A DNA stretch of 64,000 nt from Candidatus Cloacimonadales bacterium (GCA_963677495.2 CAXXOU010000003.1:384001-448000), one strand, 5' to 3'; numbered from the stretch's first letter, positions 32,118-46,380 are shown. Notes: generated by a model from the letters alone, not told the origin. A program made the numbers and translations.

Positions 32118-32843
32118 TCACCTGAATGCCAGATAAATTTGTAGCATAAAGGTTAGCGTTGTTATTATACCTGTATAAAGTCTCCAATTAAATCTTCTAG
32201 GAGGAGGTACAACAAGGGTATCCCCGGGATAAAGGAGTAGATGTTCTCTATACTCCAAATCTTTGGAGTCTGCAAACCAGATATGCTTTAAGTTTACATT
32301 AAACACTTCCCCATCTTTCCTGATAATCCTTATAGTTTTAACTTCTCTGATATTAACAATTCCTTTGGCTAACGCTAAAGCATCTGTGATTCGAATAGGT
32401 TCATATATTTGATATTCACCTGCAGCATTAACATAACCAATAATATTGAGATTATGACCGTACATCTTATCGATGTAAATAGTTACGACAGGGATAGTTA
32501 CATATGGCCTGAGCTGTTCTTTAATTATAGCACTTAACTGAGCAGATGTCAGACCGGCAACTTTAATACTACCAAGAAGAGGATATTCAATTCTACCATC
32601 GGGTAGGACTAAGATTTTAGTCTTAGTAAACTCAATATGATCCATAACCAGGATAGATATCCTATCACCTTTTTGTAGAACATATTCATCTTCATCAACC
32701 AGAACCAATGAATCAGGTAATGGGGCAACTTTTACCTCACCTTGAAAAACATCATCTTTAGTAATTCTGGGAATATAAGTACCTTGAGCAAAGATTGTAA
32801 AAGTGAAAGTAGCAACTAAAAAAATCAGTAAATATCTCTTCAT
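32118..32843 (-). CDS. Wza/OPX-like polysaccharide export protein (Poly_export + SLBB)
   Basis: Start moved to MKRYLL (GAGGT RBS). YVLQKGDRISI, VLPDGRIEYPLLGSIKVAGLT, LYPGDTLVVP; hydrophobic C-terminal helix. Confidence 0.88.
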   Translation of the reverse strand: MKRYLLIFLVATFTFTIFAQGTYIPRITKDDVFQGEVKVAPLPDSLVLVDEDEYVLQKGDRISILVMDHIEFTKTKILVLPDGRIEYPLLGSIKVAGLTSAQLSAIIKEQLRPYVTIPVVTIYIDKMYGHNLNIIGYVNAAGEYQIYEPIRITDALALAKGIVNIREVKTIRIIRKDGEVFNVNLKHIWFADSKDLEYREHLLLYPGDTLVVPPPRRFNWRLYTGIITTLTFMLQIYLAFR

Positions 32844-32850
32844 AAGAACC

Positions 32851-33936
32851 TCAATTATTGATTTCATCGAATATCTTTTTTTTGTATCTAAGGGGATTTG
32901 CTTCCCAGTATTTTTCACCATTATATTCAGTAATAATACCCGGGTAAGTAAACATCTTCAAGTCCTTTGATGTCATTTTTCTTACTTTATTAGATAACTC
33001 AATTGCTTGTGGTATAGCAATATTTGTTTCTGCATCATCTAATATAGCTTTACCGACCTGTCCACTCTTGAAGTAATCAAGCTGTGAAAACTTACTCCAA
33101 AGCTCGTTCATAAAACTCTTTTGCCTGGTAATCCTATTAATAGTGCCTGTTTTGTAGTCAAGTCTCCTCATCTCCTTAGCAATAAATGTAATATAGAACC
33201 AGGAAGTATAGCCGTCAATTATATGGACACCACTATTAACTCGATATTCCTTAGCGAACTCTTTTGGAATATCGACTTTTACACCTCCAATATGGTCAAT
33301 AAATTTAATCCATGCCGGTCTATCTTGAGCGAAGAAATAATCTATATCTGTCTCAGTAACCTCTGAAACAGATTGCACAAGGGCAGATGTACCACCAATA
33401 AGATACATTTCATATAAAGTTTTAACATTACCTAGAAAGTCATGAACAGATGTAAACCAAGGAAGATGAGTTGCTGAGATAATGCCATATGTGGGATACA
33501 CATCTATCAAAATGAAAGTCCTTGGTAGACCAGCATAAATGATAGTAAACCTATCTTGATCTTCAATCATTGGCGTCTTTGGCTTAGGAATTGGAGGTAG
33601 CTTAATTCTTTTAACCGGAGGAGATTTCTTCACTTTACATGGTATACAATATGACTCCCAAGCTTCTATAATCATATCAGGATTGAACCTATCAATGTCA
33701 GCATTAGGCTTCATGCCATCAGCTTTTCTTATTAACTCGTAAAGGGTCATACCTTCATACATTGGATAAACGCCTGGGTCATAAACACAGCCACCAACAC
33801 CAGCGTAGGTTATTTCCCTTTTACTACAAGATTTAGGAAATAGAAGAAATACAATAACAGCAGAAATAATCAGAAGAAAATAGATTACTGAATAGATGTA
33901 TTTACGAGTATTACTATTTTTACGTCGCTTTTTCAC
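32851..33936 (-). CDS. Membrane-anchored SLBB + LCP (LytR-CpsA-Psr)-like protein
   Basis: GTG start; TM; SLBB (GCVYDPGVY...LIRKADG); Pro-rich linker; IDHIGGVKV, RITRQ, ETNI LCP motifs. Confidence 0.78.
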   Translation of the reverse strand: MKKRRKNSNTRKYIYSVIYFLLIISAVIVFLLFPKSCSKREITYAGVGGCVYDPGVYPMYEGMTLYELIRKADGMKPNADIDRFNPDMIIEAWESYCIPCKVKKSPPVKRIKLPPIPKPKTPMIEDQDRFTIIYAGLPRTFILIDVYPTYGIISATHLPWFTSVHDFLGNVKTLYEMYLIGGTSALVQSVSEVTETDIDYFFAQDRPAWIKFIDHIGGVKVDIPKEFAKEYRVNSGVHIIDGYTSWFYITFIAKEMRRLDYKTGTINRITRQKSFMNELWSKFSQLDYFKSGQVGKAILDDAETNIAIPQAIELSNKVRKMTSKDLKMFTYPGIITEYNGEKYWEANPLRYKKKIFDEINN

Positions 33937-36482
33937 TATTCATCCATATCAAGTTCATCATCCAAGCCGATAAATACTTTCAACTTGTGAAGATACAGCT
34001 CAAAACCTTTCTTCTTTCTTACTCGACCGAAGTGTGTTTCAGAGTGCACTTCATTTTCAAGGATTTCATCTTCTAGTAAGAAAGTTCTCTCAACTTTAGA
34101 ACGATTCTTAACAATAGAGAGAATCTTTAAAGGATTGTATTTATTGAAGAAACTTGATTTATCGGATTGAGGACCATACTGTTTTGAATAGTAGTAGTAA
34201 CTATAATGATAATAATCTTGGTAAGTTTTATCAAATACTTCTTTAAGCATCGAGTTAGCAATAACTCCACCAATTTTTGTATCCAGTATTTGGATTTTTT
34301 TAAGTAGTTTTTTGCAGCTGATAGAAGTAGTAAACCCCATTTTAGAAGTAAGAAGAACACAATCCATTTCGTTAACAAGAACAGATGTTTCAGGGAAATA
34401 CATGGCAGCCGGTGTATCAATAATTATGATATCACAAACGGTTTTCAAGTCATTGATAATATCCTTAAATCTTTCACTATGGTAAAGATGAGCGACACTA
34501 GGAGGGCATTTACCTGTAGGTAATATCATTAAATTATCAATTCGTGTTTTCTGAATAACTTCATGAATTGCCATCTGTTCAGTCAACACTTCGGAAAAGC
34601 CGAAAGCTTTAGTTTGTTTGTAATATCTTGAGATTTGGGGATTATAGAAATCAGCATCAACTAAAAGAGTTTTAGTATTATTATTCGCCAAAGCTATCGC
34701 TAAATAGTTAGTAATGGTTGACTTTCCTTCTCCCTTGAGAGAACTAACCACAGCTATGGCATTGTTTCTTTTATTAAGAATTAGATACCTGAAGTTCAAC
34801 GCTATTTCATTAAAAACACTTCTTACAAGTTCCTGATTATGTACTTCATCATCTGTTTTCTTAGCAGTTTGTGCATCAAGTTTTAAAGGGTTAAATTTGA
34901 ATTTTGGTATTGTCCCAATTACCGGAATATTAGGATATACTTGCAGTAGCTTTTTGATGCTACTTATCTTATTGTCAAACCTGGTTAATAAGAAAACTAA
35001 TGCAACGCTAAGAGCTAGCCCAAAAGCGAATCCATTCAGAAGAGCCATAAAAAGTTTTCCCCCTAAATGATTTTTAGGGACTGTAGCTTCTTCTAGTTGA
35101 ACGATTCTGTTAAGATCTACGTTAGCACTCAATCTAACATTGTTTAGCTGATTTTGTAGGTTTGTAATAGTTAGAATTAGTGCGTTTTGCTCCCGTTGCT
35201 TTGATTTGAGAATCGAGTTTTCTTCAGGACTAAGCTCCATATCGTCAATAATCTTCCTCAGAGCATTACGCTTTTGCTTTAAAGATATTGCCTTAGTTTG
35301 GGATTCTACAAGTTTCTTTAGAATTTGCTGCTTAAGCGGATTTTGCCCGACACTTCTCATTTGAATACTTTCTTCAACACCTTCAGAAATGAGAGTTCTG
35401 ACATTGGTTATATTCTTTTTAAGACCAATGACTTTAGGGTGGTTCTCTCCGTAAATAGTTAAGGCTCTAGCCAGCTCAACTTCAAGATTCATTAGCTTAA
35501 TCTTCAAAGGTTCACTATATGTTGTCTCAGTTACGTATGTCGAATCTTCTTCATTTAGCTTATTACTTAACACTTTTATATTTGATTCTTCTGCTTCCAG
35601 ATCAACCTCAATAGAAGTAAGTGTACCTTTGAAACTATTCAATCTTTTCAGGTTATCATCAAGATTTTCCCCATAGTTTCTGAAATCATTTCTTGAATAC
35701 AGAGATTTGGTAAGCACATTCAGTGAGTCAAGATCATCCGTCTTTGCCCTAATCTGCGTTTCCAGGTAATCAATTGTTTTTGTAAGGTTTTTCCTTCTAA
35801 CATAGCTATCATAGTCTTTCAAAGCTGTGAAATAGCTATTTGCAACATCGGTAGCTAGTACCGGATCTAGTGAAGTTGAGGAGATAACTAAAATAGATTC
35901 ATTTGTAGATGAACTTGAGCATCTGATCATACCTCGTGCTGCTCTTTGAGAAACTCTTCCATTAAGGTTCTCCGCAACTAACTTTGCAACATCTGAAGAG
36001 TAAACAATTTCTACCCATGTTGCTATGTCCATTGAGTTTTTTACTATAGGCTTATTGTTGATTACCTTGAGCTCAATTGAGTCTTCCTGAATAAGAATTC
36101 TTGTACTAGTTTTGTATACAGGAATCTGTCTCGAGTGATAGACATATGCACCCACTAATCCAAGAATCGTAAAAGCCAGAATTATCCACTTGTTTCGATA
36201 AGCAACTTCCAGATATTCAATCAATGAGGGCTCACTATTTTCATTTGGATTTGAAATAAATCCTGACAATTTTGAGTCATCTTCTTCTCTAATTGGCTCT
36301 TGATCGTCTATCTTAGCATTAGATGTTTGTGAAACCTGAGTTTCGATTTGTGCTTCAGAGGAAAAAACACTTTGGGAATCTTCAGTAGTTTCATTGGAAT
36401 CATTTAAATCGAGATTATCTCTTTCTAAATCATTTTCCTTTTGCTTTCTTATTTCAGTTATTGAAAGCCGTCTTTTTGACAT
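33936..36482 (-). CDS. Wzc-like polysaccharide co-polymerase / BY tyrosine kinase
   Basis: Two TMs around a coiled-coil periplasmic domain (YGENHPKV); Walker A GEGKST, A' LLVDAD, B IIIDTP; Tyr cluster YQDYYHYSYYYY. Confidence 0.92.
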   Translation of the reverse strand: MSKRRLSITEIRKQKENDLERDNLDLNDSNETTEDSQSVFSSEAQIETQVSQTSNAKIDDQEPIREEDDSKLSGFISNPNENSEPSLIEYLEVAYRNKWIILAFTILGLVGAYVYHSRQIPVYKTSTRILIQEDSIELKVINNKPIVKNSMDIATWVEIVYSSDVAKLVAENLNGRVSQRAARGMIRCSSSSTNESILVISSTSLDPVLATDVANSYFTALKDYDSYVRRKNLTKTIDYLETQIRAKTDDLDSLNVLTKSLYSRNDFRNYGENLDDNLKRLNSFKGTLTSIEVDLEAEESNIKVLSNKLNEEDSTYVTETTYSEPLKIKLMNLEVELARALTIYGENHPKVIGLKKNITNVRTLISEGVEESIQMRSVGQNPLKQQILKKLVESQTKAISLKQKRNALRKIIDDMELSPEENSILKSKQREQNALILTITNLQNQLNNVRLSANVDLNRIVQLEEATVPKNHLGGKLFMALLNGFAFGLALSVALVFLLTRFDNKISSIKKLLQVYPNIPVIGTIPKFKFNPLKLDAQTAKKTDDEVHNQELVRSVFNEIALNFRYLILNKRNNAIAVVSSLKGEGKSTITNYLAIALANNNTKTLLVDADFYNPQISRYYKQTKAFGFSEVLTEQMAIHEVIQKTRIDNLMILPTGKCPPSVAHLYHSERFKDIINDLKTVCDIIIIDTPAAMYFPETSVLVNEMDCVLLTSKMGFTTSISCKKLLKKIQILDTKIGGVIANSMLKEVFDKTYQDYYHYSYYYYSKQYGPQSDKSSFFNKYNPLKILSIVKNRSKVERTFLLEDEILENEVHSETHFGRVRKKKGFELYLHKLKVFIGLDDELDMDE

Positions 36483-37321
36483 TACATTTCCCTACCATGA
36501 TAAGCTAAGTCAGTGAATACCATTTCCATCGTATCCTTATCAATTAGCTTTGCTTTCTCTGCAGAAGCAACATCCATTGCAATTTTACAAGCACGATTTA
36601 TTTCCCGCGGGATGCCTGAAGTCTTTCTATAGATAACTCTCAAAGCATCTGCTGTGAAAATTCTCTGCTTTGCACCAGATACCTTCAATCTATATTCAAC
36701 ATATGAGCTGGTATCATCTGAGCTCATATGGTTTAAGTGAAATCTCATCCCGATTCTTTGGTCAACCTGAGGAAGTTTTCTAATACTTTTCATGATAGCT
36801 GGTTGTCCAATGAGAATGAGTTTAATTGGGCAAAAATAGTTATAATTAATGTTAGTTAGGTCCTTTAAGAGATCCAAGTCTTTTGCTGAAATTTTCTGAG
36901 CCTCATCAAGAAATATATATATTAAACCTTTTGTGTACAGAAGTTCATCTTCAATGTACTTTTGCAACATTTTGAAAAGGTAATATCTTTTTTTTGGTAG
37001 TTTCATTGCATCTGTATCCAGAATCTGAGAAAGCACTTCTGTAAGTATCTCATTGTAAGTGAAAGATGTTGAGTCAATGTTAACAACTATATTGTTCATA
37101 TTACTTTTTTTAAGTTCAGAAATCAGTACCATCTTAGTTATCGTTTTACCGGTTCCGATCTCTCCGCTAAGTAATCCCAGATTCATGCTTTGAGAATTAA
37201 CCACATATTTAAGTCGCTCCAAAGCTTCATAATGGTCAGTACTTTTATAAAAGAATTTTGGGTTATTATTGTCCTCAAATGGTGGTTCATTAATATTCCA
37301 AAAGCTATAATAATCTATCAA
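36482..37321 (-). CDS. ExeA/GspA-family AAA ATPase
   Basis: N-terminal Y..FW.I.EPPF, GEIGTGKT, LDEAQ, LIGQP, SGIPREIN. Confidence 0.9.
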   Translation of the reverse strand: MIDYYSFWNINEPPFEDNNNPKFFYKSTDHYEALERLKYVVNSQSMNLGLLSGEIGTGKTITKMVLISELKKSNMNNIVVNIDSTSFTYNEILTEVLSQILDTDAMKLPKKRYYLFKMLQKYIEDELLYTKGLIYIFLDEAQKISAKDLDLLKDLTNINYNYFCPIKLILIGQPAIMKSIRKLPQVDQRIGMRFHLNHMSSDDTSSYVEYRLKVSGAKQRIFTADALRVIYRKTSGIPREINRACKIAMDVASAEKAKLIDKDTMEMVFTDLAYHGREM

Positions 37322-37329
37322 TATTACTC

Positions 37330-37989
37330 CTATTTTCTCTGGCTAATTTTTATTTCAACTCTTCTATTTTTATATCTATTCTCTTCACTATCGTTTGCAA
37401 CTAAAGGCTTGAACTCGCCATATCCCATTATCTGTAACTGATCAGCAGTGAAGTATCCGTTACGAATGAAGAATTTAACAATACTCAATGCTCTAGCAGT
37501 AGATAGCTCCCAATTTGAAGCATACTTATTATTGGCAATAGGTACGTTATCGGTATGACCTTCTATCCTAATTTGCCAGTTATCATCATCCTTAATAACA
37601 TTTTTAATTTCAATTGCTATTTTCATTAAAGTATCATGAGACAACCATCTAAGCTCAGCTTCTCCTGATTCAAAAAGTATCTCGCCCGGTACAGAAATCA
37701 CTTTTTCATTAATATCACCGTCAAGTTTGTTTTCAAGCGAGTCAACTATAGTCTGAGCAGCCTCAAGTTGTTTCTTCTGTTCCTCAGCTATTGTTTTCCA
37801 ACCAGTCTCAGTATCTCCAATCACGAAATAGAAAACAAAGAAGATGAGTAACAGAGTCATCATATCAGCATAAGGAACCAAAGCAGTATAGAATCCAGAG
37901 AAGTCATTATCAGGAGTGTTATTAGTACTCTCCTCAATCTCTTTAATGACTTGCTTCGATTTACCTTTAAAATCCTTAGTATTAAGCAT
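37330..37989 (-). CDS. motB: MotB/PomB-like stator subunit (TM with conserved Asp + OmpA-like PG-binding domain)
   Basis: VPYADMMTLLLIFF; ILFESGEA; IEGHTDN; SNWELSTARA; NRRVEI. Confidence 0.9.
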   Translation of the reverse strand: MLNTKDFKGKSKQVIKEIEESTNNTPDNDFSGFYTALVPYADMMTLLLIFFVFYFVIGDTETGWKTIAEEQKKQLEAAQTIVDSLENKLDGDINEKVISVPGEILFESGEAELRWLSHDTLMKIAIEIKNVIKDDDNWQIRIEGHTDNVPIANNKYASNWELSTARALSIVKFFIRNGYFTADQLQIMGYGEFKPLVANDSEENRYKNRRVEIKISQRK

Positions 37990-38719
37990 AGATCTTTGTT
38001 AATTCTGTTCTGATAATTTCAGAGTTGCGCTTTTCAATAACACCTGATATACCTTGAATAATAATTTCTCTAGAAATAAACTCATGCTCCGAGCGTGAAG
38101 ATATTTTACCTGCTATCGGTCTAAATATTACAACTGACAAAACTAGACCATATAGTGTAGTAACGAGTGCAAGACTCATTGCTTGCGGGATAACAGCTGG
38201 ATCAGCAATATTGCCAAGCATAGCAATCAATCCAATCACAGTACCAATCATGCCAAACATCGGAGATATATTACTCGCTACACTAAAAATCTTTGCTGCA
38301 CGTAATCCTGATCTCAGAATCGATCTACTCTCAGATTCGAGAAATTCCGAAATCCTTTCTTTAGGTATATTATCTGCTAACATAGTAATAGTTGTCAATA
38401 GAAAAGGAATGTTTTGAACTTCGTCGTATCCTTGTATCTCGATAAAGCTAAGAGTTCTGGAGTCTTTACTAACACCAACCATAATGTCTACCATATCATC
38501 ATGTGTTGTAGGTGGTGTGAAGTAAACTGAGCTCAAAGTCTTTAATGAATCCTGAAGATTAGAAATGGAGTAAGTTGCTAATAAAGCTGCAATTGTTCCT
38601 CCAAGAGTAACCAATAATGCAATAGGATCAAAGTATTCTATTAAAGTTCCTTTCGCACTAATAGCTATGAGAATTATTGCAACACTTAGTATGATACCGA
38701 TTAATGTACTTATTTTCAT
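37982..38719 (-). CDS. motA: MotA/PomA-like stator subunit
   Basis: VTLGGT, PMFGMIGTVIGL, ALVTTLYG, PIAGK; flagellar-type cytoplasmic domain with R88. Confidence 0.9.
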   Translation of the reverse strand: MKISTLIGIILSVAIILIAISAKGTLIEYFDPIALLVTLGGTIAALLATYSISNLQDSLKTLSSVYFTPPTTHDDMVDIMVGVSKDSRTLSFIEIQGYDEVQNIPFLLTTITMLADNIPKERISEFLESESRSILRSGLRAAKIFSVASNISPMFGMIGTVIGLIAMLGNIADPAVIPQAMSLALVTTLYGLVLSVVIFRPIAGKISSRSEHEFISREIIIQGISGVIEKRNSEIIRTELTKIYA

Positions 38720-38728
38720 GCTAATCCT

Positions 38729-40108
38729 TTAAAAACTTAGTATTTGACGAATCTTTCTTAATGAATAGTTAAGGATTGTATTTTTCTCTTTCTTGCTCAA
38801 CTCACCGTAAGATTCAATATCTTCTTTAATAATCATTATTGCTCGTTCTGATAGCTGTGAATAGAATTTACTCTTAATCTTAGAGTTCACGCTTGCAAGA
38901 AACTTCACGAGTTCTAGGTGGGTTAATTCAAGAGAAATCTGTTCAATCTGGACATTAGAAAGCACAAGGATATCTTCCAAAAGGAAAACTTTATCTGATA
39001 TTTCTTTAGCCTTGTATGAATCCACAAGCTGAATTGAATCGTAAAGATTCTGTGAAACTTCAAAATTGGAATTGTTAATTATTTTTGCGAGAAGTCCAAC
39101 ACCTTCGAGTTGAATGGCTTCCTTCTCCATTACTTCTAGATATTTGTTATAAAGACCTACAACCAATATTTTTAGGTCCAGTTTGAGCTTTGTTTGGTTT
39201 GAAAGCATAGCCTGAATAATCTGGTTGCGATTCTTAGTAACATGTTGGAAAAAGTTACCAGCTTTTGAAGGAGATATTTGGGAAAGAATAAATGCAATAT
39301 CTTCAGGAGTTTCCTCTTCAAGTATTTCTGCCATGTTTTCATCTGAAAGTTCTTCTAAAAAATCAAATCTTGTAGGCATAGCATCGTCTTCTTCATCTTT
39401 TAAAACTCTGACTTTTAAGGGTTCAAGAGGAACTTTGGGGTGTGAACTTTCGACCTGAGCTGTTTGAATAACATCAGGCATCTTAGCACTGCTTATAGCT
39501 TCTATGTTTGATACTTTTATCTTTCTCATCGATTTTGCAATGATTCTCATTCCGGATCTAATGTTATTTAGTAAAAGGAACATTAAGAAAATTACAATGA
39601 TAAAGAAATATAGTTGATAATTGTTTGCTTTAGGTTTACTCATTTCAGCGAGCATAGCCTCAGTTTTAATATCTAAAATATCGCCCTGAACTTCATTGAT
39701 TGTTATAATATCTCTAATCTCATTCTCAAGGAAAATTATCAATGTTTGAGATGTTTTAAGAGGTACTTTCACACTAATCTTCTTTCTTAATATCTCGGTA
39801 GGAATCACATCTTTAAGATCAGTTTCAACAATCTTGTTATCTGTCTTACCAACCGGTAAACCGGGTAAACTCATACTTGGATCATACTTAAAGTCAGATG
39901 ATTTAGCTTCGAATAGATTGTATTTCAAGTCTAAATCAACACCAACGATGCATTCACCAACAAATGGCTTAACAATATCTTCAATTCGGTTAGCAAGCTC
40001 ATTTTCAGCTTTTAACTCAGCAAGCGAACTGGTTGCTTCAGAGTTAAGATTTGCAAAAATGAACAAGATAGAAAAAATCAACAGAAGCAGTTTAATTTTT
40101 CTTATCAT
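38729..40108 (-). CDS. FliF ring-building-motif / FliG middle + C-terminal domain fusion protein
   Basis: N-terminal hydrophobic segment; RBM3-like ENELANRIEDIVKPFVG..VDLDL...LPG...RKKISV...QGDILDI; one TM; FliG-M FDFLEELSDE...EETPEDIAFILS; FliG-C EISDKVFLLEDI...QLSERAIMIIKEDIESYG. Confidence 0.8.
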   Translation of the reverse strand: MIRKIKLLLLIFSILFIFANLNSEATSSLAELKAENELANRIEDIVKPFVGECIVGVDLDLKYNLFEAKSSDFKYDPSMSLPGLPVGKTDNKIVETDLKDVIPTEILRKKISVKVPLKTSQTLIIFLENEIRDIITINEVQGDILDIKTEAMLAEMSKPKANNYQLYFFIIVIFLMFLLLNNIRSGMRIIAKSMRKIKVSNIEAISSAKMPDVIQTAQVESSHPKVPLEPLKVRVLKDEEDDAMPTRFDFLEELSDENMAEILEEETPEDIAFILSQISPSKAGNFFQHVTKNRNQIIQAMLSNQTKLKLDLKILVVGLYNKYLEVMEKEAIQLEGVGLLAKIINNSNFEVSQNLYDSIQLVDSYKAKEISDKVFLLEDILVLSNVQIEQISLELTHLELVKFLASVNSKIKSKFYSQLSERAIMIIKEDIESYGELSKKEKNTILNYSLRKIRQILSF

Positions 40109-40231
40109 CTATTCCTCCATATCTTGTATGTATTTATATCTACATGAGAAACTAGGCAAGTAAAAATTTATAATTTTTTTGTTTGACTTCACAAAAAACC
40201 CCAGCTATTAATGCAGTGATAAGGAGCGATC
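40109..40231. promoter_or_regulatory. Divergent promoter region between the motor operon and the adhesin operon
   Basis: 123-bp gap. Plus strand TTGACT-N17-TATTAA (40183-40211); minus strand TTGCCT...ATAAAT; RBSs GGGAG and AAGGAG. Confidence 0.5.
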
Positions 40232-43200
40232 ATGTATTATAAACATACCCAAAAGACTCGTATATTAACAATATTCGTGTTATTTACGTCCCTAACTAGC
40301 CTTGTTGCAGTGATTTCTTTTAACACTTCTATTTGGAACGGTAATCATTATATTTCCGGTGAAACCTCATTTGATTATTTTTCTTATGAAGTGCAGAACG
40401 GAGATGTTAATGGTGATGGGATAGCTGATTTAATCTGCTCTGCACCCTATTCTGACTATCAGGGACGCAACTCTTCTGGTACTGTATATGTTTTTTACGG
40501 TATTTCAATTCAGCAAAACTATCAATACATTGACCTATCATCTGAGAATGCTGATGTCACAATTGTAGGTGCAAATAGCAATGATCAGTTAGGAAAATCC
40601 CTTGGAATTGGGCAAGTGAATGCAGACCTGTATGATGATATTGTTATCGGCGCTCCTTATGCTAGTTCAGATACAGTTCAACAAGTAGGTAAAGTCTTTG
40701 TCATAAGTGGTAGTAATCAGCTACCCGCGTTTATTGACCTTGCAACATACCCCGCTCAGACCTTTGAAGCTAATAACCCAAACGACCTTTTTGGCTCTAC
40801 TCTCAATCTCGTCGACCTTAACGGTGATTTAAGGCAGGAGATTGTTATTGGTGCTCCAAATGCTGATCGAGATATTGCTAATAACTGTGGTAAAACTTAT
40901 ATATTATGGAGTACAGTTACTTATCCTCTTATTAACAATATCAATGACTTATCTGATATAACAATCTTTTCCGGTCTTAATACAAATGATTTATCAGCAA
41001 CCACTTTCAGTAGTGGAAACGTTAATAACGACTCATATCAAGATCTATTGATAGCTGCACCTGGTTATGATAATGATCTTTATAACAACAGTGGTGCTAT
41101 CTATATTATAACTGGTAGATCATCGATTCCATTTCAAGAGTTTCAATTAGATAATAGTACTTATGTAACATCAACTATCAAAGGTGCAGAACAAAATGCC
41201 CAATTAGGATTATCACTTGCTTGTGGTGACTTTAATGATGACAATAATGATGATATTATTGTATCGAACTTTTGTACTGATAATGAAACAGGCAGTCTGT
41301 ATATGTATTTTGGTAGTAACTCCATACCTAATGAGTTTCAGTTAACTGAACAGAATTCCAACTTTGTAGTTTTAGGAACTGAAACTGATAACAGTTTTGG
41401 TAGTAATTTATTGATAGAAGATCTTAACAATGACCAGATTAGTGATTTAATAATTTGCACACCTGATGCTACCACATCTAATGGAGCTTTGAGTGGTAAA
41501 GTCCAAGTTCTTTATGGGCTTAGCAGCCCACCTGTTGTTATAGATTTCAATGAAAGCACTCCTGATGAAGTATATCTTGGAGCATCAAGTGATGACCTTT
41601 TCGGCACTTCTGTTACTATTTTTGATTTCAATAGTGATAACAAATTAGACATCTCTATTGCTGCACCACAAGGTCATAGTAATCGAGGAGCAGTTACCAC
41701 AGTTTACGGTGGGTTACCTTTATTCAGCAATCCAAACCCGGTAGATGAGGCAAGTGATGTTGATATTTCACAATCTGTGTCTTTCACTTTGTATGATGAT
41801 GAAGGCATAGACCTTAACTCTTTAGGTGTTACAATTGCAGGCACTTTCTATGATTTAAACAACCCTAACCTCTCTTATGCCGGGGAAGCCACAAATTATC
41901 GAATCGCGGTTACTCCACAGCAATATTTCGGATATAATCAAATTATTGATGTAACTGTAACAGCTACTGATAATGATGGATATTTGATTCCAACAACAGC
42001 TTACAGATTCTATACAAGACAAGACACAGATCCTCCATATACAAACACATGGATACCATCACCGGGAGATACTGATGTATCAGTTGATACAAACATAAGC
42101 TTCCATATTCTTGACTTGGGTGAGGGTGTCGATTTGACGACTATTGAAGTGAATGTTAATGGTGAGATCTACTATAATGGTGATCCAGGATTTAGTTATA
42201 GTGGAAGTTCCAATGACTATTATATAGAGATTGATCCAGCAAACAATTTTGGGTTCGAGCAAGTTGTTAATGTTCTTATTAACGCTTCTGATCTGGCCGA
42301 GAATCCCAATGCCATGAGCACTTTTGCCTATTCCTTCCAATGTTCACAAGATCTTGCTTCCCCTAGCTTGCTCTATATAGACCCATCGAGCCAAGAAGTA
42401 GTTGCTAGAAATCATCCCATAACAATTGAAGTTGTAGACCCGGAATCAGGTTTAGATCTATCATCTCTAGTTCTGACATTGGATGGTTCTTCTATTATTG
42501 AACAATGTGAGATTACACAGATACAGCAAAATAATGGTTATCGCTTCTACTGGAACCCGGTTCCTGACAATCTATACTCTCTAGGAGAGCATTCAATAGA
42601 GTTATATATTCAGGATAATTCCGCTAATTCCAATGCGATTGATACACTCTCAGTGTTCACGGTAGAGGCTGATTTAGAAGCTCCATATACTATCAATCAC
42701 ATTCCTGAGAAATTCAGTTTAGATAATCCAGAGAATACACATTTTAGTGTAGATATTCTTGATATTCTTTCAGGAGTTGATTTGGAGTCAGTATCGATAA
42801 ACATTAATGATTCTGAAATAATAGATTTACCAGAAACTGATGTAGTAATTATTCCAAATGGTTATAGGATTACTTACACACCATCAAACTATTTCAGTGA
42901 TATTGTAACTATTCAGATTTCTGCAACTGATTTGAATACTCCTCCTAACTTAATGCCTTTAGAGGAGTATACTTTCACATGTATACAAGATTTAGTTGCT
43001 CCCTATATTGCTGCTGCAGCTCCATCAGATCAGGAGCTGAATGTTCCACAGGATACAGATGTTTCTCTATCGCTTAGAGATGATTTGACAGGTGTAAATC
43101 CTGAATCTATACAACTATTTATTGATAGCGAAGAAGTTACAGATAATATAATTATAACTGAGTTATCTGATCAGATCGATCTTTTGTATAATCCCGATGA

Positions 43201-44908
43201 TGACTTTGATTTCAATCAGTGGGTCACAGTTAGAGTTGTATGTGCAGACTTAGCTTCCACACCAAACCCATTAGATCAAACTTACTCCTTCAAAATCATC
43301 CCGGATATTGAACCGCCATATCTGGTAAACATGATACCTGAAGATCAAGAAAGTGGTGTCGCTACTGTTGCAGAGGTTTCATTTGAAGTTCACGACGATG
43401 GACTTGGTGTTAACATAAATTCTTTGACTGTATATGAAAACAATATGCTAGTAACTACTGTATATGAGCAGATTCCAGATACAAATAATTACTTAGTGAC
43501 GTGGGAGCATGAACCTTATGAATATGGTGAAGAAGTAAACATAGTTGTTTCCGTCTCGGATATCGCAACAATACCAAATACTTTGTCTAACTTTATTTAT
43601 AGTTTTACAATCGCTGATGATGATGTGATTCCTCCATACTTTGACGGATTCAACCCGTCACCTCAGAGCATCGACGCTCCTGTTGAAACTTCAATCTCAT
43701 TAAAGATACTTGATACTGAGACTGGTATAAACAAGAATTCAATATTGTTCCACGTTAATAACCAAATTGTGGTTGATTATGAGCTGGAAGATATAGTTGA
43801 GGGAGATGCAACAGGAGTAAGGCTGTACTATCAACCTGCAACTGATTTCAACTACAATCAAACAGTAAATGTTCAAGTGTATGCTATTGATAACTCATCC
43901 AATCATAATGAAGCCAGTATAAATTACTATTTCACTACTTTATCAGACACAGAACCACCATATCTTGTTACAGCTAATCCTGCTGATGGTGAAAATGGGT
44001 ATGCTTTCTCTTTGATTTACCTTTTGTTTAGAGACGACCTTTCAGGAATAGATCCCAACTCCATAGATTTAGAGATAAATCAGGAACCTGTTTATGACTT
44101 TGAAATTGAATCAAAGTTTGAGGGTTGTGAAGTTCGTTTCCTGACAGGTAGTTTTGAAGGAAATGAAACAGTAGAGGTTTCCTATACAGTTGCCGATAGT
44201 ATAGGAAATCTTCTTCAAGGCAATTATAGTTTCAGTATTATTGAAGACATCTATGAGCCTTATTTTATCTTAGAGAATCCCATTATTGGAGACATTCAAT
44301 CTGATGATGTTTTACAAGTTGCCGTTTTAGATAAAGGAACCGGAATTGACTCTACATCGGTAAGGTTCTGGGTTAATAATCGTGAGATTCATACTTTCCA
44401 GTTAAATAGAGATGTATATTCTACTAATCCGGACTCATTAGGTTATTTATTACTTTATCCTCTAGATAATATGTACTACCCGGGACAAGAGCTCAACATA
44501 GATATTGAAGCAGAAGATAACTCATCTCCGGTAAAACTATTTGCTCAAGATAGCTTTATTACACATGTTTTTAAACAAGCTAAGGATGACAAAGTAACAG
44601 TTGTACCGGATATTATAACTCCAAACAATGATGGTTTCAATGACAATGTTAGAATTATTATACCTCTAGACTCTGGAGATGATGAAGCTGAATGCATAAT
44701 CTTCAGTTTAAAAGGCAAAAAACTTATAGAACTAAATTGCAATCCTTATAACTATTTTGATCAAGATGCGGGAACTTCCTTGCAGTACAAATCTGCTTTA
44801 TGGAAGGGAGTAAATGATAATGGAAAAGGTGTACCACCTGGAGTTTATATCTGCCAAGTAAAGGTTAATGGTAAAACACACCTTAACACAATAACGGTTG
44901 CGAAGTAG
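40232..44908 (+). CDS. Large surface adhesin: 7 FG-GAP repeats, 9 Ig-like (Big_5-type) repeats, type-B-like/FlgD CTD
   Basis: Signal peptide; seven DxNxDxxxD repeats; nine D..PPY...P...D...G(V/I)(D/N)..S(I/L) repeats; CTD PDIITPNNDGFND...WKGVND.G..VPPGVYI. Confidence 0.88.
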   Translation: MYYKHTQKTRILTIFVLFTSLTSLVAVISFNTSIWNGNHYISGETSFDYFSYEVQNGDVNGDGIADLICSAPYSDYQGRNSSGTVYVFYGISIQQNYQYIDLSSENADVTIVGANSNDQLGKSLGIGQVNADLYDDIVIGAPYASSDTVQQVGKVFVISGSNQLPAFIDLATYPAQTFEANNPNDLFGSTLNLVDLNGDLRQEIVIGAPNADRDIANNCGKTYILWSTVTYPLINNINDLSDITIFSGLNTNDLSATTFSSGNVNNDSYQDLLIAAPGYDNDLYNNSGAIYIITGRSSIPFQEFQLDNSTYVTSTIKGAEQNAQLGLSLACGDFNDDNNDDIIVSNFCTDNETGSLYMYFGSNSIPNEFQLTEQNSNFVVLGTETDNSFGSNLLIEDLNNDQISDLIICTPDATTSNGALSGKVQVLYGLSSPPVVIDFNESTPDEVYLGASSDDLFGTSVTIFDFNSDNKLDISIAAPQGHSNRGAVTTVYGGLPLFSNPNPVDEASDVDISQSVSFTLYDDEGIDLNSLGVTIAGTFYDLNNPNLSYAGEATNYRIAVTPQQYFGYNQIIDVTVTATDNDGYLIPTTAYRFYTRQDTDPPYTNTWIPSPGDTDVSVDTNISFHILDLGEGVDLTTIEVNVNGEIYYNGDPGFSYSGSSNDYYIEIDPANNFGFEQVVNVLINASDLAENPNAMSTFAYSFQCSQDLASPSLLYIDPSSQEVVARNHPITIEVVDPESGLDLSSLVLTLDGSSIIEQCEITQIQQNNGYRFYWNPVPDNLYSLGEHSIELYIQDNSANSNAIDTLSVFTVEADLEAPYTINHIPEKFSLDNPENTHFSVDILDILSGVDLESVSININDSEIIDLPETDVVIIPNGYRITYTPSNYFSDIVTIQISATDLNTPPNLMPLEEYTFTCIQDLVAPYIAAAAPSDQELNVPQDTDVSLSLRDDLTGVNPESIQLFIDSEEVTDNIIITELSDQIDLLYNPDDDFDFNQWVTVRVVCADLASTPNPLDQTYSFKIIPDIEPPYLVNMIPEDQESGVATVAEVSFEVHDDGLGVNINSLTVYENNMLVTTVYEQIPDTNNYLVTWEHEPYEYGEEVNIVVSVSDIATIPNTLSNFIYSFTIADDDVIPPYFDGFNPSPQSIDAPVETSISLKILDTETGINKNSILFHVNNQIVVDYELEDIVEGDATGVRLYYQPATDFNYNQTVNVQVYAIDNSSNHNEASINYYFTTLSDTEPPYLVTANPADGENGYAFSLIYLLFRDDLSGIDPNSIDLEINQEPVYDFEIESKFEGCEVRFLTGSFEGNETVEVSYTVADSIGNLLQGNYSFSIIEDIYEPYFILENPIIGDIQSDDVLQVAVLDKGTGIDSTSVRFWVNNREIHTFQLNRDVYSTNPDSLGYLLLYPLDNMYYPGQELNIDIEAEDNSSPVKLFAQDSFITHVFKQAKDDKVTVVPDIITPNNDGFNDNVRIIIPLDSGDDEAECIIFSLKGKKLIELNCNPYNYFDQDAGTSLQYKSALWKGVNDNGKGVPPGVYICQVKVNGKTHLNTITVAK

Positions 44909-44916
44909 GAGGAATA

Positions 44917-46380
44917 ATGAAAAAGATACTTATAACAACATTCGCTTTCTTCCTTATCGCTAATCTGTTCTCTTTCAATTTTGAAAAAGCCGGAATACGT
45001 AACTTCTCAATGGGTAACACTGGTATCGCTCAATCCTTTGATGCTTCAGCTGCTGTATATAATCCTGCTCTATTAGCACACATTAAAGAGTTTTCATTGT
45101 TAACTGACAATAGAATATACCTGTATGAACTTGAAAATGACCAGTTATCTTATAATTCTGTAATTGTATCTGTTCCTCTTGGCACAAAATTCAGCTCTGC
45201 TTTTTCATCTGATGTTTTTCAGTCAGACCTTTATCAAGAACTGCATCTAGGTCTGCATGCCGGTACTTTCATAAGAGGTGATAGGTTCAAAGCAGGGATA
45301 GGATTAAACTACTTTAACGCTGGATTTGGTTCAAACATCTACACTGCCAATGATCCACTTTTTGTTGACAATGATGATAGCAGTACTGCTATAGATTTTG
45401 ATTTAGGATTCGCATATTTAGTAAACAACAGATTACAATTTGGTTTAGTTGGTCGGAACCTTCTACAATCAAAACTTGCAATTGATTCAGATGATACACT
45501 GGCAAGAGAAATTGGATTTGGTGCGACCTTCAGCATAATTCCACAGTGGTTAATCGCTACAGATTTAGTGTATACTTCTTACAATGAAGAAGACTTTGAC
45601 GAGTTAATATACTCATTTGGTACCGAATACAGACTTTCAAATAACCTAGCATTAAGAGGTGGATTGAACAATACTGATTTGAGTTTTGGTTTTGGATTCC
45701 TTGTCCTTGAAAAAGAGTATTTACAAAAGTATCGTGACCCTCTAAACAATAGAAAGATGGTGAATAGTAAGTCTATTGCACTATCTGTAGACTATGGTTT
45801 TAGTTATCCTGTGCTATCAGATATGGAAATACCATATGGAAACCACTTTGTCGGACTTGAACTCAAGTTTGGAAGCTCAACAACTGATGAAGACAAGCTT
45901 GCATCTCAAATACCTCCAAGAATTCAAACTGAGTTTATCAAAGAGCCAATGAAAGCTATTGAGACCCCACAACTAGCTACAGTTGACACATTGTATATCG
46001 AGATCGAAAAAATAATAAAGGATACTGTTTATGTTGTTGATACATTGAGAGTTTTCACTGGTATATCTACTGATGAATATCTTCGCAAATCTAAAGAACT
46101 TGATGCAGTAAAGCTTGAGCTCAAAGACTATCAGGATCTTAATAAAGCTCTTATACATATTACAAACGCCACTAAATACTATTATCAAAGTGATCTTGTG
46201 AAAGCAGTAGCAGAGTGCCGTGCAGCCATTAGACTTGCTCCAAATATGGCTCTAGCCTATATAAAACTAGGTTCTATATATTACCGAATGGACGAAAAGG
46301 ATAAAGCTTTCTCAAATTGGAGAAAAGCCAAAGCTATAGACCCGAATAATCCAGAACTTAAAGCTGTCTTTAGGGAGTAA
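44917..46380 (+). CDS. PorV/PorP-like outer-membrane beta-barrel with C-terminal coiled coil and TPR
   Basis: GIRNFSMGN...DASAAVYNPA hatch motif; GTEY..LALRGG..SFGFG; TPR AIRLAPNMALAY..LG...AKAIDPNN. Confidence 0.78.
   Translation: MKKILITTFAFFLIANLFSFNFEKAGIRNFSMGNTGIAQSFDASAAVYNPALLAHIKEFSLLTDNRIYLYELENDQLSYNSVIVSVPLGTKFSSAFSSDVFQSDLYQELHLGLHAGTFIRGDRFKAGIGLNYFNAGFGSNIYTANDPLFVDNDDSSTAIDFDLGFAYLVNNRLQFGLVGRNLLQSKLAIDSDDTLAREIGFGATFSIIPQWLIATDLVYTSYNEEDFDELIYSFGTEYRLSNNLALRGGLNNTDLSFGFGFLVLEKEYLQKYRDPLNNRKMVNSKSIALSVDYGFSYPVLSDMEIPYGNHFVGLELKFGSSTTDEDKLASQIPPRIQTEFIKEPMKAIETPQLATVDTLYIEIEKIIKDTVYVVDTLRVFTGISTDEYLRKSKELDAVKLELKDYQDLNKALIHITNATKYYYQSDLVKAVAECRAAIRLAPNMALAYIKLGSIYYRMDEKDKAFSNWRKAKAIDPNNPELKAVFRE

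Follow-up and report, generated by a model that had tools for sequence, protein, structure and literature searches.

A natural fusion of FliF and FliG domains with its own stator genes in Cloacimonadota suggests a rotary cell-envelope machine not yet described

Introduction

Can the rotor of the flagellar motor be put to work in a bacterium whose genome lacks flagellar genes? This question is raised by one gene in a 64,000-nucleotide stretch of DNA from a Candidatus Cloacimonadales bacterium (GCA_963677495.2 CAXXOU010000003.1:384001-448000). We refer to this whole stretch as the window, and coordinates are counted from its first letter unless a genome or locus handle precedes them. The gene, which we call RING, lies on the minus strand at 38729..40108 and encodes a protein of 459 residues. 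Using Pfam, a search of the PDB, an AlphaFold2 (AF2) model, Foldseek and profile comparisons, we find that RING is a natural fusion of a FliF-type ring-building motif (RBM), RBM3, through a transmembrane (TM) helix to the middle and C-terminal domains of FliG (FliG-M and FliG-C), as a preliminary description of the locus had proposed.

FliG rings and flagellar-type stators are taken to operate in flagella only. The domains of RING are themselves known; what appears to be new is their assembly and its output, the latter being proposed only. In the literature searched, from which most subscription papers were absent, we found no description of the RING architecture or of the gene cassette around it, and the terms MotA, FliG and gliding have no occurrence in the main text of a Cloacimonadota genome study (PMC8542988; this and the other published sources are cited from excerpts). 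The cassette appears to be a conserved assembly of known parts that matches no family tested.

Domain architecture of RING

In the AF2 model (30 homologs; mean predicted local distance difference test, pLDDT, 71.9; predicted template-modelling score, pTM, 0.33), RING begins with an N-terminal helix, which is followed by an alpha/beta domain that is split (residues 29-149), a TM helix from residue 163, a linker and two helical domains. Pfam places FliG_C (PF01706) at residues 360-445 (E 9.8e-14) and has no match in the N-terminal half; residues 247-307 give a marginal match to MgtE_N (26.4 bits) and one to FliG_M that falls below the cut-off (21.1 bits).

The N-terminal domain is identified by its fold. 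Residues 25-155 (39644..40036, minus strand, as for all parts of RING) form a split ring-building motif of the FliF RBM3/SpoIIIAG type, arranged in the model as alpha-beta-(insert)-beta-alpha-beta. Among 48,161 chains, the best structural match to this domain is RBM3 of FliF (6scn_A, residues 232-438; Z 13.1, root-mean-square deviation 2.8 A over 95 residues), with SpoIIIAG (Z 9.3) and PrgK (Z 8.8) ranking lower. Foldseek, queried with RING, returns FliG first and then FliF RBM3 at E 2.4e-5 to 4.4e-4, and HHalign matches the profile of the domain to 16 FliF sequences at 98.3% (E 2.6e-14). In a scan of 16 neighbours and relatives, 12 of them RING relatives, 6 proteins score above the cut-off for PF08345, the FliF C-terminal ring domain. 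The fold and the HHalign match thus bear out the FliF/SpoIIIAG-like motif that had been proposed for the periplasmic part. The motifs quoted in support of that proposal are all present in RING, but the PG of the ring motif belongs to an insert (bearing SLPGLP), and the PG of FliF aligns instead with P103-T104. This insert measures 40-42 residues in the RING family, as compared with about 57-90 in FliF.

The preliminary description counted a single TM segment. Between RBM3 and FliG-M there is indeed one, at approximately residues 165-183 (39560..39616; AF2 model and hydropathy), in the position of TM2 of FliF; what it had missed is a further hydrophobic segment at residues 1-23 (40040..40108), which, from hydropathy and the family alignment, we read as a Sec signal peptide, probably cleaved. 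The TM helix is followed by a cytoplasmic linker (39371..39559; model and alignment), which takes the place of FliF-C and FliG-N, is 60-69 residues long across the family, and in RING has pLDDT below 50 at residues 196-245.

The remainder of the chain is FliG. All 11 sequence matches of RING in the PDB are to FliG or to an engineered FliF-FliG chain and fall within residues 244-445; the FliG of 3hjl, for example, matches residues 249-445 at E 9e-14. The profile of the RING family aligns with that of canonical FliG at 99.5%, beginning at FliG-M. In structure, FliG-M (39119..39370) agrees with 4fq0_D at Z 11.5 and 1.6 A, as against Z 6.2 and 8.5 A for MgtE, and FliG-C, with the torque helix (38732..39106), agrees with 1qc7_B at Z 12.7. 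We therefore reject the alternative that this region is MgtE-N, whose Pfam match is marginal and is also produced by canonical FliG; this match is not accompanied in RING by a CBS or an MgtE membrane domain. No FliG-N was found: the alignment starts at FliG-M, just the linker separates FliG-M from the TM helix, and a FliG-N profile matches at 0 of 57 loci. RBM1/2 are missing from RING too; they and FliG-N are both absent, as had been suspected.

Two features of FliG deserve separate mention. The EHPQ motif, replaced here by ETPE, is missing in 103/103 RING relatives and present in 3/3 canonical FliG proteins of the same phylum, so the loss noted for this one protein extends to the family. The torque helix, which had been called intact, is so only in part: it keeps the equivalents of FliG R281, D288 and D289 as R422, E429 and D430, whereas S438 stands where canonical GPVR has its Arg, and canonical ALKG has a Lys with no counterpart here. 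Among close relatives, R422 is kept in 32/32, and the positions of E429 and D430 are acidic in 32/32.

We also considered whether RING might be an assembly artefact or a chance fusion. The locus lies within one contig, and zero letters differ in 3/3 sequencing runs of one sample, although these runs are not independent confirmation, because the sample may be the source sample. Given that the architecture is kept in relatives and that the runs show no differing letters, we reject this explanation.

Among the relatives there are also variant forms. In P0086, P0097, P0098 and P0173 the FliG-C domain is duplicated. A form of about 675 residues, found at L048:9456-11477 (G194) and L087:8426-10456 (G195), has some 150 extra helical residues before FliG-M, which by eye are like a FliF-C/FliG-N junction, though the FliG-N profile does not match them. 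Possibly it represents the fusion at an earlier stage.

Flagellar genes in the source genome

The source genome (G000), a member of the Cloacimonadota, is 99.46% complete. YscJ_FliF (PF01514), FlhA and FliMN_C (PF01052) were not found in it by searches that were each positive in 4/14 control genomes, and its single FliG_C match is the RING gene itself. When eight flagellar-operon proteins of relatives were compared with the genome by tblastn, only RING and ATPase-like matches were returned; FliP/Q/R and flagellin were not among the queries. Together with the family-wide loss of EHPQ, these results agree with the earlier suggestion that the rotor would lack both a switch and an export gate.

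A dedicated stator

The gene motA (37982..38719, minus strand, 245 residues) starts 9 bp downstream of RING, and it is followed by motB (37330..37989, minus strand, 219 residues). The nearest solved relative of MotA is Vibrio PomA (E 1.5e-30); among the NCBIfam stator models, all of which score below their cut-offs, PomA and MotP are the best. MotB consists, by Pfam and alignment, of a TM segment with Asp42, a short linker and an OmpA-like peptidoglycan-binding domain, and the channel Asp is present in 42/45 cassette MotB sequences. In MotA, the threonine positions of PomA are retained (T188 in 44/44), and the position of R88 is Arg or Lys in 39/44. In PomA these threonines are Na+ ligands, and since their positions are kept, Na+ coupling of the stator is likely.

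The linkage between rotor and stator is not confined to the window. We distinguish 57 RING loci, and in 48/48 of those having at least 2.5 kb of downstream sequence, both MotA and MotB are encoded within 8 kb; these and the other locus counts below are not independent, because the loci are related. In a quick tree of MotA, in which long-branch joins are flagged, among them the placement of MotA from family f14, the cassette stator groups with flagellar MotA and away from ExbB/TolQ-like proteins. The flagellated carriers of RING (G114, G115 and G117) have a separate flagellar-type motA-motB pair, whose MotA is split from the cassette MotA by a branch of support 99. The preliminary description had called RING a rotor from the protein alone; the dedicated motA-motB pair supplies genomic support for that name. 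As for the contact between the two parts, the rotor-stator charge pairs of the flagellar motor are R90/D288-D289 and E98/R281 (PMC12505986), and the first of these is kept in RING and the cassette MotA, while the second is altered on the MotA side (see below).

These data allow us to weigh the idea that RING is a degenerating leftover of a flagellum since lost, or else a flagellar spare. Flagella do occur in the phylum (FlhA in 23/218 genomes), and in its flagellated members fliF and fliG are adjacent. Yet FlhA is found in just 3 of the 48 genomes with a RING of about 460 residues, and these retain a separate canonical stator; the RING architecture is kept, moreover, in 106 of 150 listed clusters at 50% identity, across several phyla, and its partners are fixed and non-flagellar. 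On the distribution of FlhA and the stator tree we reject a relic, which we consider extremely improbable.

Outer-membrane partners

A second pair of genes starts divergently, 123 bp from RING, on the plus strand. The first (40232..44908) encodes an exported protein of 1558 residues with FG-GAP repeats and Ig-like repeats (Pfam FG-GAP and Big_5) and a C-terminal domain like type B of type IX secretion (the T9SS; CHU_C E 3.4e-4, below cut-off), and it is probably a surface cargo or adhesin. The adjacent gene (44917..46380, 487 residues) encodes a FadL/PorV-like outer-membrane barrel with a C-terminal stalk, a long helix and a tetratricopeptide repeat (TPR) domain. In its model (pLDDT 78.3), 14 strands are followed by roughly 60 residues of low confidence and then by a helix of 39 residues and the TPR, and the structural matches of the barrel to FadL (Z 31.9) and PorV (6h3i_F, Z 30.7) are about equal; its match to PorV_fam has E 1.3e-10, which is below cut-off. 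For the pair as a whole, the matches to CHU_C, TIGR04131, PorP_SprF and PorV_fam are all at or below cut-off, but in a C-terminal alignment the tail of the large neighbour protein is type B-like in 14/14 sequences shown. From the model, structural comparison and alignment, the long helix and TPR (46069..46377) are a candidate contact for RING.

The stalk, residues 325-384 of the barrel protein (45889..46068), contains three D-T-[LV] motifs. In general, motifs of the form D-[ST]-[AILVMT] occur 3-4 times in the stalks of 32/32 homologs, for a total of 98 as compared with a shuffle mean of 9.6 (maximum 19), and their density, 5.8 per 100 residues, compares with 0.3 for the genome. One such motif also occurs in the linker of the cassette MotB in 38/45 sequences (near 37700-37820 in the window). 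The motif agrees with that of O-glycosylation in Bacteroidota (PMC8729774). On one reading, then, the barrel protein would carry a stiff, glycosylated stalk; on another, the motifs would belong to a structural beta-repeat. The enrichment in stalk and MotB linker hints at Bacteroidota-type O-glycosylation in Cloacimonadota.

How constant are these partners? At 40 loci for which both flanks are available, a TPR partner is present at 39: 26 barrel-TPR fusions, 10 TPR lipoproteins and 3 other TPR proteins. By comparison, the same loci have a large type B-tailed protein in 24 cases, Wzc in 13 and an ExeA-like ATPase in 12. The usual order in most other families is large protein, barrel, RING, motA and motB on one strand. 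The barrel-TPR protein occurs in 40/218 genomes of the phylum, of which 38 have RING (the two exceptions are 72% and 86% complete), and conversely in 38/48 RING genomes. A second subtype, found in family f14 and at 8/8 long loci from the phylum of G220, has RING, a different barrel without a family in Pfam or NCBIfam, a TPR lipoprotein, motA and motB. Its TPR scores 28-48 bits at all 8 of these loci on a profile of the barrel's TPR tail, where the best unrelated TPR of the source genome scores 29, and so kinship of the two TPRs is likely, but not sharp. In a third arrangement, an unrelated TPR protein follows motB.

It is possible to read these partners as a TonB- or Tol-like energiser, in which stator and ring would pull or gate the barrel for uptake, release or envelope remodelling, with no steady rotation of an adhesin. 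What the two main subtypes have in common is a barrel and an outer-membrane-tethered TPR, not an adhesin; FadL and PorV match the first barrel about equally well, and the barrel of the second subtype is like LpoB/CsgG-domain clusters. The stator speaks against this interpretation: it is not ExbBD or TolQR but flagellar in kind (PomA/MotP), and its wall anchor is OmpA-like. The source genome has four ExbB/TolQ-like genes separate from the cassette, and a TonB-like pull would presumably not need a FliG ring. We regard the energiser as distinctly unlikely.

Accessory polysaccharide genes

Downstream of motB, all on the minus strand, the window contains genes for an ExeA-like AAA ATPase (36482..37321; Pfam, NCBIfam), a Wzc-like polysaccharide copolymerase/tyrosine kinase (33936..36482; Pfam, NCBIfam), an SLBB and LCP-family protein (32851..33936; Pfam) and a Wza-like Poly_export/SLBB protein (32118..32861; Pfam), the open reading frame of which possibly starts at 32921. 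Hence the order is RING, motA, motB, ExeA-like ATPase, wzc, LCP gene and wza, with gaps of -11 to 9 bp. A promoter scan of 39900-40400 gives 1 site, against 1.9 expected by chance.

These genes overlap or abut the motor genes, which would fit an alternative reading of the cassette as a surface-sensing device: load on the surface protein would pass through barrel and stalk to the ring, alter stator engagement or ion flux, and thereby turn on exopolysaccharide synthesis. The polysaccharide genes recur, in other orders, in L061, L062, L063 and L082; a response regulator stands directly before RING in L061, a hybrid kinase lies nearby in L082, and a WcaJ-like gene falls between motA and motB in L063. 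A flexible linker, too, would suit sensing better than high torque. But the polysaccharide genes are present at just 12-13 of the 40 loci, and among the loci examined no signalling gene is conserved across subtypes; we find sensing rather unlikely.

The same counts bear on the suggestion, in the preliminary description, that the pore of the ring is free for another client. In this account RING would be a SpoIIIAG-like scaffold or conduit with an open pore, serving some other inner-membrane client such as polysaccharide export. The absence of RBM1/2 and of an export gate, the short insert and the structural likeness to SpoIIIAG are all compatible with it. In the loci examined, though, we saw no conserved inner-membrane client or transporter gene, and the constant partners are instead the TPR module and an outer-membrane barrel. 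With its genes at 12-13/40 loci, polysaccharide export is rejected as the core client; besides, Wza/Wzc systems make their own conduit. We consider a conduit improbable, and the claim of a free pore finds no support in the neighbourhood.

Distribution of the family and relation to type IX secretion

The closest named relative of RING, from a Cloacimonadales record, is 68% identical, and a first homology search returned 39 proteins, mostly full length. The RING family profile matches 74/218 genomes of the phylum: 48 with the form of about 460 residues, 6 (family f14) with a form of about 670 residues, 19 with canonical FliG only and 1 that is spurious. The weak match in G095 (E 2.9e-4) was excluded, its locus having no RING or Mot gene. 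Beyond the phylum, the profile of the N-terminal domain finds 169 representatives among 1.8 billion sequences. Classed by domain profiles, the 106 listed clusters mentioned above combine an RBM with FliG-M and/or FliG-C and have no RBM1/2, while 16 of the 150 are true FliF and 28 are other or partial. For 20 representatives that were looked up, the taxa named are Omnitrophota, Elusimicrobiota (2 clusters) and Ca. Electryonea, most having no taxon; two Neomarinimicrobiota records are among the named RING loci, and Atlas clusters point, as leads only, to Cloacimonadota, Elusimicrobiota and Bdellovibrionota. Bdellovibrio is reported to have three motAB pairs (PMC12827227).

RING might also be a general type IX secretion motor in lineages without GldLM/GldKN. 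The source genome encodes SprA, which scores 438.8 bits where the cut-off is 200; a PorV-family protein likewise exceeds its cut-off, and a PorU-like one stays under it. GldL, GldM and GldN were not found in this genome, in searches for which no control genome passed the cut-off and which did not include GldK. The distributions of the two systems disagree, however: SprA occurs in 203/218 genomes of the phylum and RING in 54, family f3 has SprA in 90/94 and a true RING in 0, and family f14 has RING in 6/6 and SprA in 0/6 with the query used. Because SprA is widespread without RING in the one family and unmatched in the RING-bearing other, a general T9SS motor is rejected; we hold it to be very improbable.

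A proposed mechanism

We propose the following mechanism, starting from what the domains of RING are, from the missing flagellar genes, from the fixed linkage to motA-motB and to TPR and barrel genes, and from the torque-helix charges that are kept. By homology, RING would oligomerise through RBM3 into an S-ring-like collar, with a ring of FliG-M/C beneath the membrane, and wall-anchored MotA5B2 units, probably Na+-coupled, would turn it. Rotation would be in one direction, since there is no FliM, FliN or CheY input. The periplasmic stalk of the barrel ends in the TPR, which would dock on the ring like a drive shaft; this step, suggested by gene context, is the weakest. The motor would then turn or pull the PorV-like carrier together with the giant type B-tailed surface protein held by it. 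For Bacteroidota it is reported that type B cargo remains bound to its dedicated carrier (PMC12635249), and that a motor moves SprF-SprB, with SprF being driven through its periplasmic tail (PMC12635249, PMC9143113). The output would be movement of the surface protein, in surface motility or the working of an adhesin, or else the drawing of this single cargo out of the SprA translocon.

We give about an even chance to this mechanism, in which a one-way, probably Na+-driven and non-switching rotor would engage the TPR stalk through its ring and so move the surface protein together with its outer-membrane carrier. The fuller picture of a further bacterial rotary machine, with a one-gene FliF/FliG rotor, its own stators and a glycosylated periplasmic stalk, that rotates or drags a giant adhesin along with its carrier in the outer membrane, is a possibility to which we give somewhat less than even chances.

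Several observations weigh against the proposed rotor, some concerning the transmission of torque and others the generality of the output. In flagella, torque is transmitted by a rigid FliF-C:FliG-N joint (PMC11087270), which in RING is replaced by 60-69 residues, mostly with pLDDT below 50; and an engineered Vibrio FliFG ring without FliM/N is described as having a fuzzy, flexible FliG region (PMC10941966). In the wide RING family R422 is kept in 56/103. The position in MotA equivalent to E98 is non-acidic in residue classes covering 43/44 sequences, although acids occur nearby, at 94 or 97, in some. Three of the 45 MotB proteins have Ser or Asn in place of the channel Asp (L025:3634-4218, L026:154-738 and L078:9501-10082). 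The similarity between the TPRs of the two subtypes is partly generic. Lastly, the giant type B-tailed protein is near 24 of the 40 loci but 0/10 loci of the lipoprotein type; this, together with family f14 having no SprA match with the query used, means that an adhesin output cannot be universal.

Comparison with known systems

With the flagellar rotor-stator core (FliF, FliG and MotA5B2/PomA5B2), the RING system shares the RBM3 fold, the TM helix, FliG-M/C with the torque-helix charges, a PomA-like A subunit, and a B subunit with channel Asp and wall-binding domain. It differs in that RING is one chain without RBM1/2, FliF-C, FliG-N or EHPQ, in the absence of FliM/N, an export gate, a rod and a filament, and in its partners, namely a surface protein with a T9SS tail and a barrel of the PorV type that bears a TPR stalk. 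By its parts the system may work like a flagellar rotor and stator, yet by gene membership it is not a flagellum.

The one natural FliF-FliG fusion found in print is that of Chlamydia, likewise from a non-flagellated bacterium and joined at FliG-M (Bergeron 2016, PMC4768692). As the excerpted account has it, that protein (about 330 residues) keeps RBM2 and two TMs, has no SpoIIIAG-like RBM3 and just a FliG-M-like part, and is linked to an injectisome (PMC4768692). RING, in contrast, keeps RBM3 and FliG-C, lacks RBM2 and has its own stator.

Fusions have also been engineered, reportedly in Salmonella among others. An engineered FliF-FliG fusion of Vibrio demonstrates that a fused chain can build an MS-ring, although it is a laboratory construct of about 100 kDa in a flagellar context (PMC10941966).

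Among non-flagellar motors, the T9SS/gliding chain of Bacteroidota (GldLM, the GldKN hub and SprF-SprB) offers a likeness to the proposed output, as its ion-driven inner-membrane motor moves the carrier of a type B-tailed adhesin via the carrier's periplasmic C-tail; there the motor spans the periplasm and meets, at the outer membrane, a ring or track of lipoproteins (PMC12635249). The RING system has instead an inner-membrane ring homologous to FliF/FliG and a carrier tail made of a long stalk and TPR, with no GldL/M/N found. The generic 5:2 ion motors (ExbBD, TolQR and AglRS) are also members of the MotA/B superfamily that act outside flagella (PMC12505986), but the RING stator falls beside flagellar MotA in the tree and is accompanied by a rotor of the FliG type.

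If the proposal is correct, the rotor would have been reused for another job in a cassette that is conserved in several phyla and combines a motor core of three genes with partners at the outer membrane. The three genes make two questions testable: whether RBM3 and FliG-M/C are enough to form a ring that is driven by a stator in the absence of FliM/N, and whether the torque module functions independently of an export apparatus. For uncultured, non-flagellated phyla it would mean a way of moving on surfaces or of handling adhesins, and a natural minimal rotor would bear on the origin of the flagellar motor apart from type III export. There is also a practical consequence for annotation, since the many proteins labelled 'FliG C-terminal domain-containing protein' or 'flagellar motor switch protein FliG' can falsely suggest flagellar motility in uncultured bacteria.

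Additional observations

Two of the loci whose MotB lacks the channel Asp, L025 and L026, belong to the flagellated genomes G115 and G114, respectively. At these loci and at L078 the stator may be non-conducting or decaying. The same two genomes contain a canonical fliG standing alone outside a flagellar operon (L045:8404-9964 in G115, L093:9117-10157 in G114); in G115 it is followed by a 168-residue reading frame with FliG_C before FliG_M, a permuted partial duplicate. Some genomes hold two cassettes: at L039:7086-15572 (G138) two RING-motA-motB-TPR cassettes stand in tandem, and G180 has two of different type. In the second subtype, a conserved outer-membrane protein of about 375 residues (L125:10655-11785, with homologs in L124-L131) lies between RING and the TPR lipoprotein and is like LpoB/CsgG-domain clusters.

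In the source genome, sprA lies at G000:C1:499059-505220, and the failure to find GldL/M/N there raises the question of the energy source of type IX secretion in the phylum. In a second cluster, G000:C1:158946-168683 (L085), an SLBB protein and a Wzc are encoded together with proteins like PorU and PorV; Wzc beside T9SS genes is therefore not peculiar to the motor cassette. Finally, G000:C3:9908-17967 contains, besides genes for proteins of 1496 and 495 residues, one gene that is TolQ/ExbB-like and two that are ExbD-like, a layout reminiscent of the AglRQS/Glt-type clusters of myxobacteria.

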